Of a stretch of 64,000 nucleotides of DNA, positions 41,774 to 63,299 are shown in pieces. The stretch lies in NCBI GenBank assembly GCA_963718525.1, contig OY970355.1:2688001-2752000 (forward strand), written 5' to 3'. Source of the DNA: Candidatus Dormiibacterota bacterium (GTDB taxonomy: Bacteria; Chloroflexota; Dormibacteria; Aeolococcales; Aeolococcaceae). The notes beneath the pieces are model-generated. The model was given only the letters and a program-made list of their open reading frames with translations. It was not told the origin of the DNA and ran no database searches. The position numbers were made by a program, and so were the translations under genes. Numbering within the stretch: position 1 is the first letter of the stretch; each line of letters opens with the position of its first letter.

Positions 41774-41866
41774 GGAGGCGTCTGGGCACCTGGTGGGCCT
41801 CCTGATCTTCAAAATCAGTGTGACCGAGTATCCCGGTCAGGCGGGTTCGATTCCCGTCCGCCTCCG
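41774..41866 (+). tRNA. selC: tRNA-Sec (UCA)
   Basis: GGAGGCG/CGCCTCC acceptor stem, anticodon arm CTGAT-CTTCAAA-ATCAG, long variable arm TGACCG..CGGTCA, T-arm GCGGG-TTCGATT-CCCGT; between selD and selA; followed by CCG, so CCA is not encoded. Confidence 0.93.
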
Positions 41867-41890
41867 CCGGTACACGTGGGGTCATCGCGC

Positions 41891-58317: not shown

Positions 58318-58440
58318 TGCGCGCTCGCCACACGACCAGGAGATCGCGAGCCTGAAGGTGCGTCAGCGGCCCGAACTCTCCCGTGACCGGATCACGCCGG
58401 CTCGACAGGAAGGAGTTCACCTGAACTGGAAAGATCGGGC

Positions 58441-58488
58441 TGGAGCGGGAGACGAGGCTCGAACTCGCGACCCCTACCTTGGCAAGGT
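58441..58488 (-). other. 3' half of tRNA-Gly(GCC), an attachment site (attR-type) of an integrative element
   Basis: Reverse complement ACCTTGCCAAGGTAGGGGTCGCGAGTTCGAGCCTCGTCTCCCGCTCCA covers the anticodon loop through CCA; 5' acceptor strand and D arm are absent. Confidence 0.9.
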
Positions 58489-58640
58489 CCGGATCCAAAT
58501 CCGAATACGCGAGGGCCAGAAAATGGCCTTGCGGCGCCTACTTCCCGCTGGATCGATGCTTTTCGACGCGGAGCTACGGCGGTTGACGTCAAGCGACGAC
58601 GACCTGACAGTGATCGAGTGAGGGCACACTCGCGTGGTCG
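58469..58640. repeat. att core + arm repeat, copy A
   Basis: GACCCCT-A-CCTTGGCAAGGT...CCGAATACG.GAGGGC.AGAAAA.GG..T.GCGGCGCCTACTTCCC...TTCGACGCGGAG...GTTGACGTCAAGC...GTGATC.AGTGAG.GCAC.CTCG shared with 63123-63299. Confidence 0.88.
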
Positions 58641-58870: not shown

Positions 58871-59494
58871 GTGATCATCGATCACGTCATTTTCGTTGTC
58901 CGCGATCCGGTCAAGGCTGCCCAGGACTTGTACGACCGGCATGGCTTGGGGTCCGAGCGTGGCGATTACCACACGTTCTCAGGAACCCGAAATTGGAGCG
59001 TGCCGCTGGCGCCGCCTACATATCTCGAACTCCTGTCAATCGAGGATCGCACGGTCGCGGCAGGTTCGAAGGCTGGACAAGAGGTCATGGCATTTGAGGC
59101 GGCCGGAGGAGGCTTGATGACATGGGCGGTCCTGGTGGCGGACGTTACGGTCGTATCCAGGCGGCTGGGGATCGACATCTTCGACTACACCATTACCGAC
59201 GACAGTGGGACGCTTCGCGGGTGGAGGGCAGTCACCGGACCACGGCATCTGCCGTTCTTCATCGATTGGCCGAATAGCGAGGGGCGCCTGCGCCGCTGGG
59301 AACAGAAATACCAGCGGGTCGGGCACACCTCGGCTCCGATTGCGTTCTCCGGTCTCACCATCAGCGGATCAGCGAGTGAGATGTGGGAGTGGCTGGGCCC
59401 CCACGACCTGCCGTTGCGTTTCGTCGACGGCACTGACGGTCTCATTGAGGCTCGCATCGCCACCGCCGCTGGCGGCGAGATTGTGATTGCCTAG
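58871..59494 (+). CDS. VOC/glyoxalase-like family protein
   Basis: IDHVIFVV, G.H...GTRN...L...YLELL, LPFFIDW. Confidence 0.82.
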   Translation: MIIDHVIFVVRDPVKAAQDLYDRHGLGSERGDYHTFSGTRNWSVPLAPPTYLELLSIEDRTVAAGSKAGQEVMAFEAAGGGLMTWAVLVADVTVVSRRLGIDIFDYTITDDSGTLRGWRAVTGPRHLPFFIDWPNSEGRLRRWEQKYQRVGHTSAPIAFSGLTISGSASEMWEWLGPHDLPLRFVDGTDGLIEARIATAAGGEIVIA

Positions 59495-59509: not shown

Positions 59510-59537
59510 TCTGGCGACATTCACCGATGCTGGCCTG
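59510..59537. repeat. 28-bp inter-cassette site 1: TCTGGCGACAT-TCACCG-ATGCTGGCCTG
   Basis: One of five direct-orientation copies; 15 nt after the VOC stop. Confidence 0.75.
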
Positions 59538-59565
59538 CGCGCGACTGCTCTACCCTGGGGTGATC

Positions 59566-59937
59566 GTGAGCGTTGACGGACGGATGGACATTGACCCCGA
59601 TAACCACGTGCCTTTAGCGCCATTACCGCTCGGAGAGAGGCAACCTCCGGGTCGAAACCCGCCAGCACCGCCCGGTACGGGCGAGGGGGGGCAGCCGGGC
59701 AACCCCGGACGCAACCGCAGCCCTCTCGAGGAGCTCATATACACCGCGAAGATGCGCGGCTATCTGTACAAGTCAGAACTCGCGGCATTCCTTGAAGTCG
59801 TGGACGAGCAAGCTGCGGTGTTGCCGCATCTGGGCCTTTGGCAAGACTTGACAGGTGCCCCGGTGCGCCGAAAAGAAGCAATTAAGTCCATGGCTCGCTG
59901 GCTACGCGAATTGGGGATAAAGGTCAGGCGCGGCTGA
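59566..59937 (+). CDS. Hypothetical protein with stand-alone sigma70 region 1.1-like domain
   Basis: Pro/Gly-rich N-terminus, then LEELIYTAKMRGYLYKSEL...AIKSMARWLRELGIKV, resembling the LI...K..GYLT..E...L...GI.V pattern. Confidence 0.55.
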   Translation: MSVDGRMDIDPDNHVPLAPLPLGERQPPGRNPPAPPGTGEGGQPGNPGRNRSPLEELIYTAKMRGYLYKSELAAFLEVVDEQAAVLPHLGLWQDLTGAPVRRKEAIKSMARWLRELGIKVRRG

Positions 59938-59989
59938 GCTGCCTACCACTAGAAGAAAACTCCCCGCTCGGTGTATACGCGGGTCAACT

Positions 59990-60017
59990 CGAGTAGATAT
60001 TGGCGGATGCTGGCCCG
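59990..60017. repeat. 28-bp inter-cassette site 2: CGAGTAGATAT-TGGCGG-ATGCTGGCCCG
   Basis: Same 11-6-11 motif, intergenic. Confidence 0.7.
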
Positions 60018-60072
60018 GTCGAGGTTATTAGCCGTTGAATGGGATCGGCCGTCTCGGGTGGCGCCAACCCCC

Positions 60073-60111
60073 CGAACATATGTGCTGGAGGCGGCGCAAG
60101 AGCGCTAGAAT
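60073..60111 (+). promoter_or_regulatory. Possible LexA (Cheo-type) box next to a TAGAAT -10 promoter
   Basis: CGAAC-ATAT-GTGC (one mismatch to GAAC-N4-GTTC) overlaps the expected -35 position; TAGAAT at 60106-60111. Confidence 0.4.
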
Positions 60112-60208
60112 GCCCCAGCACCTCCGACTGCTGAGGACCTCATGTGCAGCCGGCCTGCGATCAAACGCCACTGCCCGCGAACGGTCCTTGCGGTAGCGGA
60201 GAGACTCG

Positions 60209-60688
60209 ATGACGGACGCCGAAGAGATCGTATCGATCCTCATTGATGAGGCCCGAGCACAGATTGCATTGCAGTCGTCAAATGCTGACAGCCACGACAC
60301 CAAGGCGCTCGCGCTACTCGGAGCGGACATCGCGGCAGGACTGGCGGTCATCAGCCTTCACGCCGTCCAAACTGCCAGCGTTCCGCCCAGCATATTCGAC
60401 CGCTATTGGTGGGTTCCGGTCGTTGGAGCCGCGTTCTCTGCAATAGCCTTCTCGTTCACGCTGTGGAACCGCGACTTCAGAATCGGTCCCGCCCCGGATA
60501 CCTTTTATGCGAACCACATTTTCCAGACGAGCTTCGCCGCCAAGTACGCCCTCCTCACTGATCTCAGCATCGCGATAACCTGGAACAACGGACGCGTCAG
60601 ATCTAAGGGTGGGGGATGGATTGTCGGAGCCTGTGGAATGGTCGCGACGGCTCTAGGTTGGCTCGTTATCTGGGCAGTGGTAAAGTGA
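60209..60688 (+). CDS. Three-TM membrane protein resembling Pycsar effector (DUF5706-like) architecture
   Basis: DTKA-LALLG then TM1 and TM2, GP motif, L..DL...I..N...+.K then TM3; GGAGAG RBS. Confidence 0.55.
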   Translation: MTDAEEIVSILIDEARAQIALQSSNADSHDTKALALLGADIAAGLAVISLHAVQTASVPPSIFDRYWWVPVVGAAFSAIAFSFTLWNRDFRIGPAPDTFYANHIFQTSFAAKYALLTDLSIAITWNNGRVRSKGGGWIVGACGMVATALGWLVIWAVVK

Positions 60689-60692
60689 CCGA

Positions 60693-60860
60693 GTGACCGA
60701 TCACGCTGATGAGCAAGAGCAGGTTTCGGCGCCCGCCGATGCCCAACAGGAGGCTCCGACGAGCCCTCCGCTGCAGCTCGGGACGGAGACCATCGACCCC
60801 TTCACCATCGCAAAAAGGGGCGATGTTGCGGGAGGAAGGGAGGTACGCGCCAGTGACTGA
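60693..60860 (+). CDS. 55-aa microprotein, paralog 1
   Basis: MTDHADEQEQVSAPADAQQEAPTSPPLQLGTETIDPFTIAKRGDVAGGREVRASD; 29/55 identical, ungapped, to paralog 2. Confidence 0.75.
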   Translation: MTDHADEQEQVSAPADAQQEAPTSPPLQLGTETIDPFTIAKRGDVAGGREVRASD

Positions 60861-61020
60861 CCACCCCGAGCAGCAACCGCGACCGTCAGCCCCGATGGAA
60901 CCGAAGCAAGAGACTCCGCCGAGCCCCCCGCCACGCCTCGGGACCGTGACCACTGATCCTTTCACCATCGTCAAGAAGGGTGCTGGACCAGATGGTGCGG
61001 AGAAGCGCCCCCGCGACTGA
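60853..61020 (+). CDS. 55-aa microprotein, paralog 2
   Basis: MTDHPEQQPRPSAPMEPKQETPPSPPPRLGTVTTDPFTIVKKGAGPDGAEKRPRD; GGAGG RBS; start overlaps the paralog 1 stop (GTGACTGA). Confidence 0.78.
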   Translation: MTDHPEQQPRPSAPMEPKQETPPSPPPRLGTVTTDPFTIVKKGAGPDGAEKRPRD

Positions 61021-61098
61021 CTCTCCGGATGTTGTGGGACACGATTCATCCAAGCCACCATTAGGAATTGATGCGCTGGAAGCCCGCCCGGCAGTCTG

Positions 61099-61126
61099 TC
61101 GAGGTACATTCCCAGATGCTCGCCTG
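61099..61126. repeat. 28-bp inter-cassette site 3: TCGAGGTACAT-TCCCAG-ATGCTCGCCTG
   Basis: Same motif, between convergent genes. Confidence 0.75.
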
Positions 61127-61196
61127 CTGAACCATCGTGACGCTTGAGGCTGGAGAGCAAACAGCGGAGCACAAGGGTTCCCGCTCGAGCCGGCCA

Positions 61197-61460
61197 TCAT
61201 CCGACGCTGTGCGTTCGTGTCGATGGAAGCCGTGTGATCGCAAAAGAAAGGAGAAGCACCACCGTCGCTGCGCCCGCACCGAATAAGGCACATTGCCAGG
61301 TCGCGAAGGTCGGCTCCGGGGCAATGCCGCTATTACACATCGATGCCCCGTCCGGACACACGCTGCCCGGCAGCGACAAAAGGACGGCGGTCCAAAGACC
61401 AATCCCGATCCCCACGGGCGCCGAGCCCAATTGAAGGATCGTCATGGCGATGCGCCTCAT
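61197..61460 (-). CDS. Small two-TM membrane protein with Cys-containing loop
   Basis: TAGCAT-6 nt-ATG leaderless-type start; two hydrophobic helices flanking CPDGASMC. Confidence 0.65.
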   Translation of the reverse strand: MRRIAMTILQLGSAPVGIGIGLWTAVLLSLPGSVCPDGASMCNSGIAPEPTFATWQCALFGAGAATVVLLLSFAITRLPSTRTHSVG

Positions 61461-61590
61461 GAACCGATGCTACTTTTTGACCTTCCCGGCGGCCCGGCAC
61501 GTCACCACCTGGTGACATCGGCAGACGTGGCCTCGGCTGTCATCACGCCCGGTCATTTGCTGAGCGCTTTGATGCTACTGCCGCCGCCCC

Positions 61591-61618
61591 TCGAGGGACA
61601 TTTGCGGATACTGGCCTG
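61591..61618. repeat. 28-bp inter-cassette site 4: TCGAGGGACAT-TTGCGG-ATACTGGCCTG
   Basis: Same motif, between divergent genes. Confidence 0.75.
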
Positions 61619-61695
61619 AGCGTCGTGCGTTACGCGTGAGCATCAGCCCACCGCGAGCTCCTGCGTTCGCCGGGACTCACCCCTAATGTGTCCTC

Positions 61696-62040
61696 ATGTC
61701 AAACGGCAAGGCGCCCATCCCTGGCTGGAACCCCGCGATCCCTCCTCGCTCGTCACATAAGCCGGCGTGGTGGGCCGCAGGCATCGTTTGCTGCTCACTC
61801 GCCGCCATCGTGTCGGAGGCGACCGCAGGCGGGATAGGTGAGGTGGCTCAGCCGGATCAAGCCGCTTGGGTTGCGATCTTCAAACTCCTTCCGATCCTGC
61901 CACCTGCGCTTGTCGTGATCGTGACTGGCGTCCGCTCGGCGCTTCGTGGACGAAGCACGTGGTCAACCGCTGGCGTCCCCAAGTTGCTGTTCTGGAGTAG
62001 CCTCGCCCTCCTTTGCGTCGCGATCCCAAAACCAGCCTGA
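61696..62040 (+). CDS. Small three-TM membrane protein
   Basis: TAATGT-6 nt-ATG start; three hydrophobic segments. Confidence 0.65.
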   Translation: MSNGKAPIPGWNPAIPPRSSHKPAWWAAGIVCCSLAAIVSEATAGGIGEVAQPDQAAWVAIFKLLPILPPALVVIVTGVRSALRGRSTWSTAGVPKLLFWSSLALLCVAIPKPA

Positions 62041-62054
62041 TCTCCTGAGGACTG

Positions 62055-62082
62055 CCTGGGTACATTCCCGGATGCTGGCATG
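62055..62082. repeat. 28-bp inter-cassette site 5: CCTGGGTACAT-TCCCGG-ATGCTGGCATG
   Basis: Same motif, 14 nt after a stop codon, between convergent genes. Confidence 0.75.
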
Positions 62083-62279
62083 CGCAGGTGAAACGTCACT
62101 TGGTGGTGTGCCTGGTCGTGAACTAGACCGCTCAGCGCGGACTTCCGGACGTCGAGCGTGCCTGGCACTGCACACCGTCGCCAGCGTGCTCGTGCGGCGC
62201 GTCCTCGGTTGAGCTGACCGCATCCAGGGCTTGCAGAGGTAACGATCCCGGACTGTCTAACTGAACGCGCTTGGAAAGG

Positions 62280-63089
62280 CTAGGTGCTCGGGCGTGCTAC
62301 AGCCCAGAGGAGATCGATAATCTCCGTCGCCGCGTTTCGGAGGAGCGGGAACGCTTCACGAACTGTCTGTCCCTTGAGACCCCGCGGCTCGCCCAGCGCT
62401 ACGTCAAAAAGGAAACTCGGCTGGTCGTCCGGTTCAAGATGCGAGCCAACGGAAGCGCTATAGAGTTGGCTGCCATCTTTGAGGGGCGCACGGTCGGCGG
62501 GTCTGATGTAGACGAGCTGGTTGGGAAGCACCGCGGCCGGCTTGGGGCTGGCGATCTTTTTCAGCTCAGCCCAAGGGCTTAACGCGACGCGTTTTGGCCG
62601 GAGCGCCAAGACAACCAGGAAACGATGTTCGTCGACGACGTCGAGCTTGTCCAAGGCCCAGAGAAGAGTGTTCTTCCCTCCCTCGTACGGCTCCAGCCCC
62701 TTGAACGCTTGCACGACCGGCTCCGCGGCTCTACCTACCTTGGTCTCCACCGTGGCTTCGTACGCTTTCCGGTCGAACTTGGGACTGCGCCAGATCGGGA
62801 AGTCGGTCTCGAACGAAGGCTGCTTGCCGTTGTCCCGAACGATGGCGTTGGCGAAGTCGTCGAGCGCGGATCGGAGATTGTGGATCGCGTCACCCAGGGT
62901 CAGAGTGATTGGGTCGGGGATGCTCGCGTCGGTGAGAATCCAACGGCTGAAGCCAGGGCGATTCGGATCGTTCTCGCGGATGACGGCTTTGGCCTTCGCT
63001 ATTCGGAACCCCGCGAGTTCATGCCCGAGATCGACGATGTGCTTGTCGACCCATTCGAGCTTCCGCTCGACGCTGTAGAGGGGATTCAC
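62280..63089 (-). CDS. Hypothetical protein (GDAIHNLRSALD / L..LD..DEHR family, possibly HEPN-like)
   Basis: KL.W...H...L, GDAIHNLRSALD, FPI, EPY, LWALDKLDVVDEHR motifs. Confidence 0.65.
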   Translation of the reverse strand: MNPLYSVERKLEWVDKHIVDLGHELAGFRIAKAKAVIRENDPNRPGFSRWILTDASIPDPITLTLGDAIHNLRSALDDFANAIVRDNGKQPSFETDFPIWRSPKFDRKAYEATVETKVGRAAEPVVQAFKGLEPYEGGKNTLLWALDKLDVVDEHRFLVVLALRPKRVALSPWAELKKIASPKPAAVLPNQLVYIRPADRAPLKDGSQLYSASVGSHLEPDDQPSFLFDVALGEPRGLKGQTVREAFPLLRNAATEIIDLLWAVARPST

Positions 63090-63112
63090 GGCTCGGCGCT
63101 ATTCTGATCCCA

Positions 63113-63299
63113 TCGAATACCAGACCCCTTGCCTTGGCAAGGTACGGCGGGAATGCCGAATACGAGAGGGCGAGAAAACGGTCTCGCGGCGCCTACTTCC
63201 CAGCTGCATCGACGCTATTCGACGCGGAGTCGACGGCCGTTGACGTCAAGCCACGCCGACCCGTGGGTGATCCAGTGAGAGCACCCTCGGGTCGGCCGA
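63113..63299. repeat. att core + arm repeat, copy B, with eroded tRNA-Gly 3' remnant
   Basis: TCGAA-N5-GACCCCT-TG-CCTTGGCAAGGT mirrors tRNA TCGAA-N5-GACCCCT-A-CCTTGGCAAGGT; arm homologous to copy A. Confidence 0.85.

Follow-up and report, generated by a model that had tools for sequence, protein, structure and literature searches.

The locus and its five sites

The subject of this report is a 64,000-nucleotide stretch of a Candidatus Dormiibacterota genome (assembly GCA_963718525.1, contig OY970355.1), referred to as the window throughout, and within it an array of five direct 28-bp motifs that alternate with small genes. The window corresponds to positions 2688001-2752000 of a single contig of 3,336,189 bp with 66.3% G+C. 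All five 28-bp strings, which an initial annotation made from the letters alone had described as direct repeats, were recovered exactly on the plus strand at 59510, 59990, 61099, 61591 and 62055, with distances of 480, 1109, 492 and 464 bp between consecutive sites. A degenerate 18-nt pattern, with up to two mismatches allowed, matched these five sites only in the 64 kb, at a chance expectation of 0.37 per shuffle (maximum 3), and none of 100 shuffles reached five matches; these shuffles, together with the genome-wide matrix scan described below, rule out a chance origin. As the logo of 231 sites places the limit of conservation at position 49, each 28-bp block is extended by a weak right arm. 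Site 1 accordingly spans 59510-59558 (block 59510-59537, 37.8 bits) and site 2 spans 59990-60038 (block 59990-60017, 30.2 bits, with the weakest left arm among the five), followed by site 3 at 61099-61147 (block 61099-61126), site 4 at 61591-61639 (block 61591-61618) and site 5 at 62055-62103 (block 62055-62082), all on the plus strand.

The sites stand between tandem (sites 1 and 2), convergent (sites 3 and 5) and divergent (site 4) neighbours alike, as had been claimed for them, and at the level of open reading frames (ORFs) this description holds, with inter-site ORFs on both strands. The proximal unit (58871-59494, plus strand) consists of a glyoxalase-like gene of the vicinal oxygen chelate (VOC) type (PF13468, E-value 7e-22) that ends 16 bp before site 1. 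Cassette 1 (59538-59989, plus strand) is associated with an ORF at 59527-59937 of at most 136 amino acids, whose true start probably lies further in and which belongs to no Pfam family. Cassette 2 (60018-61098, plus strand) carries a 159-amino-acid membrane-like ORF (60209-60688) and two short related ORFs reaching to 61020, likewise without a Pfam family. These tandem short ORFs (60693-61020) have a proline-rich stretch and a DPFTI.KKG motif in common, which suggests that they may be the product of an internal duplication. Cassette 3 (61127-61590, minus strand) encodes an 87-amino-acid small membrane protein (61197-61460), and cassette 4 (61619-62054, plus strand) holds a 114-amino-acid ORF (61696-62040). 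The terminal unit (62083-63122, minus strand), with a 269-amino-acid ORF (62280-63089) outside the Pfam families, has no site after it here.

Copies in the genome and distribution in the lineage

A weight matrix derived from the five window sites alone already revealed a second cluster in the genome. With a matrix built from 29 sites, 40 matches of at least 12 bits were obtained genome-wide, 38 of them on the plus strand, and 36 of the 40 fall within two arrays: the window array with its five plus-strand sites, and a main array at genome positions 134550-168312 comprising 31 sites in 34 kb. Two solo sites were found by the same scan, one at genome position 1876871 (plus strand, 28 bits) and one at 2204306 (minus strand, 40 bits); the remaining two matches are weak (about 12 bits), and nothing besides arrays and solo sites exceeds 12.5 bits. 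A scan for clustering in islands, as proposed in the initial annotation, therefore returns arrays and not ordinary gene starts across the genome.

The distribution beyond this genome was followed with a 23-nt pattern at no more than one mismatch, the reversed pattern serving as control. The pattern is present in 24 of 28 genomes of the genus and in 32 of 84 genomes of the family, with several copies also in a few other genera of the family, while three other families of the class gave 0 of 39, 0 of 43 and 0 of 123 genomes and a fourth 1 of 11; the reversed control yielded 0 or 1 match per genome. The presence in one genus (g13) rests mostly on 6 matches in an unpublished genome (G101), and another unpublished genome (G027) holds one chance-level match. 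Two more unpublished genomes (G086 and G234) entered only the comparison of one recombinase family, and none of the main conclusions depends on any of the four. Among all prokaryotes, at one genome per species, the exact 28-nt pattern occurs in 111 stretches, and among the 80 listed of these 111 the titles read Candidatus Dormibacterota for 67 and otherwise for 13. Some of the otherwise-titled stretches carry real arrays, with 7 sites in L097 and 3 in L120. The genomes to which L120 and L097 belong (G333 and G334) are 4.5 Mb in size, are titled as another phylum, give 11 and 5 matches and have a site subtype of their own; their arrays reflect either mislabelling or spread beyond Dormibacterota. 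Titles are depositors' labels, at least one of which conflicts with the genome grouping, and since they are unreliable in this respect, spread to other phyla is not claimed. Viral contigs contained no match to the exact 28-nt pattern. The site family is sharply defined and restricted to one lineage. A literature search on cassette arrays in Dormibacterota found nothing, the accessible portion of PMC13323075 included, with supplementary tables outside the search.

Anatomy of the site

The logo of 231 sites has its strong positions at T1 and C2, G5, A8-T12, C15-A18, C21 and T22, G24 and C25, and T27 and G28, which form the fixed blocks ACATT (8-12), CGGA (15-18) and CT.GC.TG (21-28). They are followed by a weaker conserved stretch with G30, C31, R33, Y40, T42, C45, Y46, G48 and R49, a right arm in which conservation amounts to 0.3-0.9 bit per position. 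Before position 0 and beyond position 49 the composition returns to background. The outer TCnrG (1-5) mirrors CynGA (45-49) about a centre at position 25. The full site thus measures about 49 bp and is composed of a strong 28-bp block and a weak right arm; the flanks of different genome copies are unrelated, and the conserved block is sharply bounded.

This anatomy departs from the one first proposed, in which two 11-bp arms of the Xer/dif type with an inverted CAT/ATG-type core enclosed a 6-bp spacer. The conservation pattern differs from that 11-6-11 geometry and extends to position 49. Of the three letters at 18-20, only the A at position 18 is constant (223 of 231 sites); position 19 can be T or C, G, C or A occurs at position 20, and many copies read ACC, ACA or ATA in place of ATG at 18-20; because positions 19 and 20 vary in this manner, 18-20 represents neither a start codon nor half of an inverted CAT/ATG core. 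A start codon or a coding repeat was ruled out on the same grounds, the frames downstream being different or stopping immediately.

Folding of the five window sites as 53-nt segments, on both strands, gave z-scores of +0.66 to +1.95 in nine cases and -0.10 in one, relative to shuffled sequence, and no covariation of mirrored positions was detected either within sites (232) or between the two ends of cassettes (187). A hairpin or attC-like site is ruled out by folds that are near to or worse than those of shuffles and by the absent covariation. Because covariation is lacking and the folds are no better than those of shuffled sequence, the results point to a site that would be read by a protein as double-stranded DNA, and not as a folded single strand. 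An Rfam scan gave no match at the sites at gathering score, which rules out a known RNA family, and repetitive extragenic palindromic (REP) elements, miniature inverted-repeat transposable elements (MITEs) and CRISPR repeats were dismissed in view of the missing hairpin, the gene-holding spacings of 160 bp to more than 2 kb and the lack of an Rfam match. On one small contig (G015:C77; L178, positions 48, 923, 1527, 2544 and 4268), five variant sites combine the usual left arm with an altered right block, position 25 being G instead of C and positions 15-18 altered as well; this variant may constitute a separate compatibility group.

Exchange of units and position of the junction

Flanks of 30 nt on each side of the sites were compared, and an identity of at least 80% was taken as a common flank. 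In a first set of 231 sites, 21 pairs share the left flank only and 15 the right flank only; in a set of 357 unique sites, enlarged by the stretches matching the exact 28-nt pattern and cleared of identical copies, the corresponding figures are 41 and 37. Pairs sharing both flanks number zero in either set, and 77 of the 78 flank-sharing pairs come from different stretches. It follows from the absence of both-flank pairs that homology ends at the site and that neighbouring units are not kept together between genomes. Units are exchanged between arrays and between species at these sites.

The window array provides its own examples. The right flank of site 4 matches that of a G004:C1 site at 93% identity over 30 nt, and the right flank of site 5 matches that of a G021:C94 site at 97%; the left flanks differ in both comparisons. 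The segment 61595-62085, which contains cassette 4 with both of its sites, has a counterpart in G004:C1 (85% identity over 491 bp) that lies between two sites (L049, 15331 and 14871) of a 12-site array and has other neighbours. Likewise, the segment 62069-63284 with the terminal unit is 93.6% identical over 1217 bp to G021:C94, whose copy is situated between sites at L061 1518 and 3094. Metagenome evidence was drawn from Logan contigs. Cassette 2 was encountered at about 97.5% identity in contigs of a run from a separate study (X5), and a 1362-nt contig of that run tracks the window up to 61126, the last base of the site 3 block, with the rest of the contig lying off the stretch. Two apparent joints in other runs were not trusted: one from 61618 to 62056 in X4, which has only 21 letters on its shorter side, and one from 59598 to 59916 in X8, which falls inside a cassette. 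Loose contig ends at 59510/59541 and 61598 were explained as cross-alignment of other site copies in the same genome.

For a closer localisation of the junction, the pairs were condensed to independent families, 27 sharing the left and 24 sharing the right flank. Of the variable site positions, 3, 4, 6, 7, 13, 14, 17, 19 and 20 are identical in 78-96% of the left-sharing families, whereas their agreement in the right-sharing families stays at background; for positions 29-50 the reverse applies, with agreement in 83-100% of the right-sharing families and background values in the left-sharing ones. At positions 23 and 26 the left-sharing families show 78% agreement, and the right-sharing families show 62% and 67% against backgrounds of 52% and 56%, an excess that is not significant. 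Position 26 is still different in 3 of 7 right-sharing pairs with a flank identity of at least 97%. This pattern of agreement places the exchange between positions 20 and 29, in several events to the right of position 26. Positions 1-20 evidently travel with the upstream unit and positions from 29 onward with the downstream unit, as read from the alignments of the families. The breakpoints therefore do not lie in the 6-bp spacer (12-17), where they had been expected, and map between 20 and 29, at the right-hand end of the block and slightly to the right of the centre of the site. The wider proposal of the initial annotation, an integron-like array that shuffles small cassettes at an unrecognised site, was borne out, as homology between units stops at the site.

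Layout of the arrays and their cargo

In 30 stretches, 254 sites of at least 14 bits were counted, the largest arrays being those of G016:C12, with 34 sites in 33 kb, and G004:C3, with 26 sites. All sites have a single orientation in 27 of the 30 stretches, both orientations being found in three (G016:C7, G004:C4 and G015:C125). Neighbouring co-oriented sites are separated by a median of 700 bp, with quartiles of 504 and 1076 (197 intervals). Within 178 intervals of 250-2500 bp, the best ORF is located on the site strand in 74 and on the opposite strand in 79, with 25 unclear, the ORF calls being those of a codon-usage model scoring made for this analysis and not an annotation. The majority of the cargo belongs to no Pfam family; named families comprise glyoxalase, GNAT acetyltransferase, DinB/mycothiol transferase, HAD hydrolase, RibD_C reductase, ECF sigma factors and Kelch-like secreted proteins. 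Kelch-like proteins aside, this range together with the many unassigned proteins resembles the cargo of chromosomal integrons. The small membrane protein family that includes the 87-amino-acid ORF of the window (9 members in 5 stretches) is encoded on the site strand in some instances and on the opposite strand in others. Clustering of ORFs of at least 150 amino acids near sites (111 stretches, 1.1 Mb) returned cargo families and IS110, and no other enzyme. In the main array (134550-168312; L001-L003), two 6-kb gaps accommodate an ABC transporter, an ECF sigma factor with its likely anti-sigma partner, a 635-amino-acid secreted protein and an excisionase-like helix-turn-helix gene, and a site remnant with a 5-bp deletion is present nearby at about 134313.

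These data bear directly on the view that the motif is a regulatory or architectural protein-binding site, such as a promoter, operator or insulator, and that the units are shuffled by short homology and general recombination. The motif is strictly intergenic, its kACATT can be read as a minimal -10 pattern followed by a fixed A at a distance of 6 nt, and its conserved blocks between free positions resemble protein contacts. The orientation of the sites is nevertheless independent of that of the genes, as is apparent from the strand counts given above and from the one protein family found in both orientations, and none of the five sites coincides with a promoter or terminator in a consensus scan. 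Breakpoints are confined to 21-29 and do not extend across the conserved positions 8-28, over which general recombination would be expected to scatter them, the sites are clustered in island arrays and not dispersed before genes, and the longest fixed run is 5 bp, which is far below the homology length needed by general recombination. We regard this explanation as improbable. A sigma-70-type or leaderless promoter in particular is not supported, no fixed orientation or distance to a downstream gene start being found. The alternative that had been offered at the outset, of minus-strand leaderless promoters or duplicated 5' stubs of a gene, is not supported in view of the even distribution of the cargo over the two strands and the lack of a promoter-like consensus on the sites.

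Island setting and an apparently specialised insertion sequence

The window array resides in a low-G+C stretch that is a tRNA-Gly(GCC) island. Its boundary at 58440-58488 reproduces 49 bp from the 3' part of tRNA-Gly(GCC) without a mismatch (100% identity to genome positions 2753429-2753477); the tRNA gene itself lies on the complementary strand at 2753430-2753504, 1.4 kb past the window end, and beside it a 73-amino-acid C-terminal fragment of an integrase was found (region 2753136-2753504 of the genome). An older island junction at 63123-63292, 82% identical over 170 bp to 58469-58635, splits the island into two tandem parts, with the array in the distal part. The island is decayed, and as the array is housed in it, arrays also travel as island cargo. 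The 28-bp block is no part of the 49-bp tRNA-Gly repeat, so that its interpretation as a tRNA-fragment attachment repeat was ruled out. A tRNA gene was located near an array in seven cases (six fetched stretches and the window array), representing five tRNA identities, and in all seven it is positioned at the same array end and on the strand opposite to the sites; this constant placement is suggestive only. The occurrence of the same sites across islands with different integrases argues for a shared enzyme that acts in trans. Elsewhere in the window, a selenocysteine tRNA gene was identified at 41774-41868 (ARAGORN; Rfam RF01852, 68.8 bits).

The site is itself a target. A 1.3-kb element of the IS110 family of insertion sequences (IS), with domains PF01548 and PF02371, was recorded in three copies from two genomes (L010:4353-5668 and L010:6768-8084 in G010:C13, and G016:C7:84470-85782), each of them interrupting the site between positions 9 and 10 and all in the same orientation. 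Judged by this precision, it looks like an element specialised on the cassette site. Specialised IS that home to attC sites are known. Elements of the IS1202 family are described as targeting pdif sites.

The precise recognition of the block by IS110-family elements may be taken in another sense, namely that no two-armed recombination site is involved and that the block instead terminates non-autonomous elements, or serves them as a target, in a one-sided mode of movement; this could be rolling-circle or single-strand transposition, or insertion exactly downstream of a pre-existing block by a transposase that is RNA-guided or target-specific. The junction at the 3' edge of the strong block, with weakly conserved sequence to its right, would agree with this, as would the lack of a dedicated recombinase beside the arrays. 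Yet IS110 inserts at 9/10 and not at the cassette junction, and a weak right arm that mirrors the left outer arm does exist. A hairpin of the kind used by single-strand transposases is missing, with nine of ten folds worse than the shuffle mean and no covariation of the arms, and, IS110 excepted, no transposase recurs among the families near sites. A one-sided mechanism is therefore considered unlikely.

A probable recombination site and the question of the recombinase

The explanation that we favour, with a probability of roughly three in four, is that the 28-bp motifs are the strong part of a double-stranded recombination site of about 49 bp that bounds mobile gene cassettes. A cassette, usually of one gene on either strand, would start with the right arm (29-49) and end with the 28-bp block. 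Recombination between two sites would couple the block of a first cassette with the right arm of a second, by which cassettes could be excised, inserted and reshuffled within and between arrays. The reaction would be carried out by a site-specific recombinase whose gene lies elsewhere in the genome, the most likely kind being a tyrosine recombinase.

Concerning this enzyme, a search of the whole genome with TIGR02249 gave no integron integrase, the best score being 40.2 bits compared with a cut-off of 265, and neither Pfam nor NCBIfam names a recombinase adjoining either array. The genome encodes seven full-length tyrosine recombinases, an eighth frame with weak matches, some fragments and three serine recombinases; those that were tested all look Xer-like and score below the curated cut-offs. 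One of them, a 332-amino-acid Xer-like protein, is encoded next to a solo site: the full-strength site at 2204306 lies 1.1 kb upstream of its gene and is divergent from it (genome 2204306-2206408). This gene, which looked like a platform, was set aside, as the pairing with a site is not conserved. A 385-amino-acid recombinase encoded 7 kb past the main array was also set aside, being situated on the far side of a tRNA-Gly(CCC) gene, with no tRNA repeat bounding the main array. Among the tyrosine recombinases, conservation in all seven compared genomes, at 89-93% identity, was found for a single one, a 349-amino-acid Xer-like protein (genome 2395519-2396568) that reaches 174.8 bits where the XerC cut-off is 335; it is also the one clear Xer-like gene kept throughout the genus. 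It is put forward as the leading candidate, by elimination and no more. Of the earlier proposal of a trans-acting recombinase, one part stands, in that no recombinase gene lies consistently beside the arrays; action in trans remains a proposal.

Several observations count against the favoured explanation. In the Logan contigs no excision product, circle or strain-level rearrangement was seen, and contigs of two runs (X3 and X4) keep the window arrangement across sites 1, 2, 3 and 5. The flank comparisons were made on species-level genomes, mostly metagenome-assembled, and bear on exchange as such, not on its rate or recency. The 332-amino-acid recombinase has orthologues of 87-89% identity in seven other genomes with no site within 1.5 kb, nor within 6-8 kb in the three of these seven that were followed over that distance. 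A 313-amino-acid XerA-like family, tried as a linked recombinase and set aside, is multi-copy and patchy and is present in genera without sites, and no clade of tyrosine recombinases tracks the arrays when four site-poor genomes are compared with three site-rich ones. Finally, the junction is found at the edge of the strong block and not between equal arms, and the weak right arm is unusual for a tyrosine recombinase core. A junction at the edge would, on the other hand, fit a tyrosine recombinase that exchanges one strand pair at one end of a central overlap.

One special form of the favoured explanation names the enzyme and should be considered in this context. Here the sites would be dif-like and used by the chromosome-dimer resolvase of the host, and the arrays would be Xer-exploiting elements. 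The pairing of one strong and one weak arm, as seen here, is known from many Xer-exploiting sites. The orthologues of the 349-amino-acid protein in all seven genomes and the absence of a recombinase linked to the arrays are in keeping with this idea, and a specialised IS targets the site, as the IS1202 family is described to do at pdif. Several features speak against it: the motif is not of the 11-6-11 kind, the junction falls outside the proposed spacer, and the sites are direct and not alternating. Furthermore, the motif cannot be the dif of four genomes of the genus, a closed one among them, in which it is absent or reduced to a single degenerate copy. The site as the chromosomal dif of the lineage was ruled out because it is missing from the closed genome and because the arrays do not coincide with the turning points of the GC skew. 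This skew is slight, with turning points near 1.2 Mb and 2.45 Mb that split the contig unequally. In a search for the dif of the lineage, a dif-type inner palindrome had no match anywhere in the genome, and a 23-mer common to two site-poor genomes was absent from this genome. We treat the assignment to the host resolvase as a tentative possibility, and the recombination site of about 49 bp with an enzyme encoded apart from the arrays is retained as the more general formulation.

Comparison with known cassette systems

Integrons are the textbook route by which bacteria stockpile and reshuffle single genes, and surveys reportedly find them confined to certain phyla. The present arrays could go back to an independent invention of a gene-cassette platform that would rank as a third kind next to integrons and Xer/dif modules and would be confined to one Dormibacterota family. 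It would be characterised by a two-part 49-bp site, with the strong arm at the end and the weak arm at the start of the cassette, by cassettes with their own promoters on either strand, and by a recombinase encoded apart from the arrays, which may be a housekeeping Xer-like enzyme that was recruited or a member of a class not yet linked to cassette capture. We consider the odds for and against this full interpretation to be even. If it is true, cassette platforms arose more than once, in this instance with a plain double-stranded site, and a scan with the 28-bp motif would readily uncover the large mobile gene pool of an abundant, uncultured soil lineage. The hunt for the enzyme would also gain a concrete basis, the site being short, asymmetric and precisely bounded, and a functioning system might become a new recombination tool.

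The likeness to integrons, sedentary chromosomal ones included, and to clusters of attC sites lacking integrases (CALINs) is considerable. Long arrays of short, mostly single-gene cassettes lie between direct sites, nearly all of the site is part of the upstream cassette and the junction falls on the far edge of the site, and cassettes are common to different arrays and species. As in integrons, the cargo consists of small enzymes (GNAT, glyoxalase, DinB) and proteins without known function, and an IS family targets the site. On the other hand, an integron integrase is lacking, as documented by the scores quoted above, and whereas attC is a structured, sequence-poor site that acts as a single strand, the present site has about 49 conserved bp and no hairpin. 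The cargo is without strand bias (74 versus 79), no platform gene or common promoter was found at the array end, and the arrays are placed in tRNA-linked islands.

The dif modules of Acinetobacter resemble the arrays in other respects, as they are small modules bounded by short conserved sites with no recombinase gene in or beside them. A housekeeping Xer system (host XerC/XerD) is considered to act on them in trans, and an IS family inserts at a fixed distance in the sites. In contrast, pdif sites are 28-bp, 11-6-11 look-alikes of dif that alternate in orientation and are located on plasmids, while the sites described here are direct, chromosomal, about 49 bp in length and not dif-like, with a junction outside the 6-bp spacer.

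Two further systems invite comparison. The rAID-1 arrays of Bacteroidales reportedly consist of small unrelated genes with conserved repeats, and are said to have been likened to integrons by their authors; they are also said to begin with a linked tyrosine recombinase gene and to hold immunity genes, in contrast to the arrays of this lineage, which have no linked recombinase and mixed cargo. In the tycheposon arrays of Prochlorococcus, units reportedly accumulate at tRNA genes between direct repeats, the repeat being a piece of the tRNA and the units being either integrase-borne or satellites. The window array is also found in a tRNA-Gly island, but its 28-bp block is unrelated to the tRNA repeat and its units are of about 0.7 kb. 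Taken together, the cassette system of this Dormibacterota family functions like an integron or a set of dif modules, but it fails the tests by which either of the two is defined.

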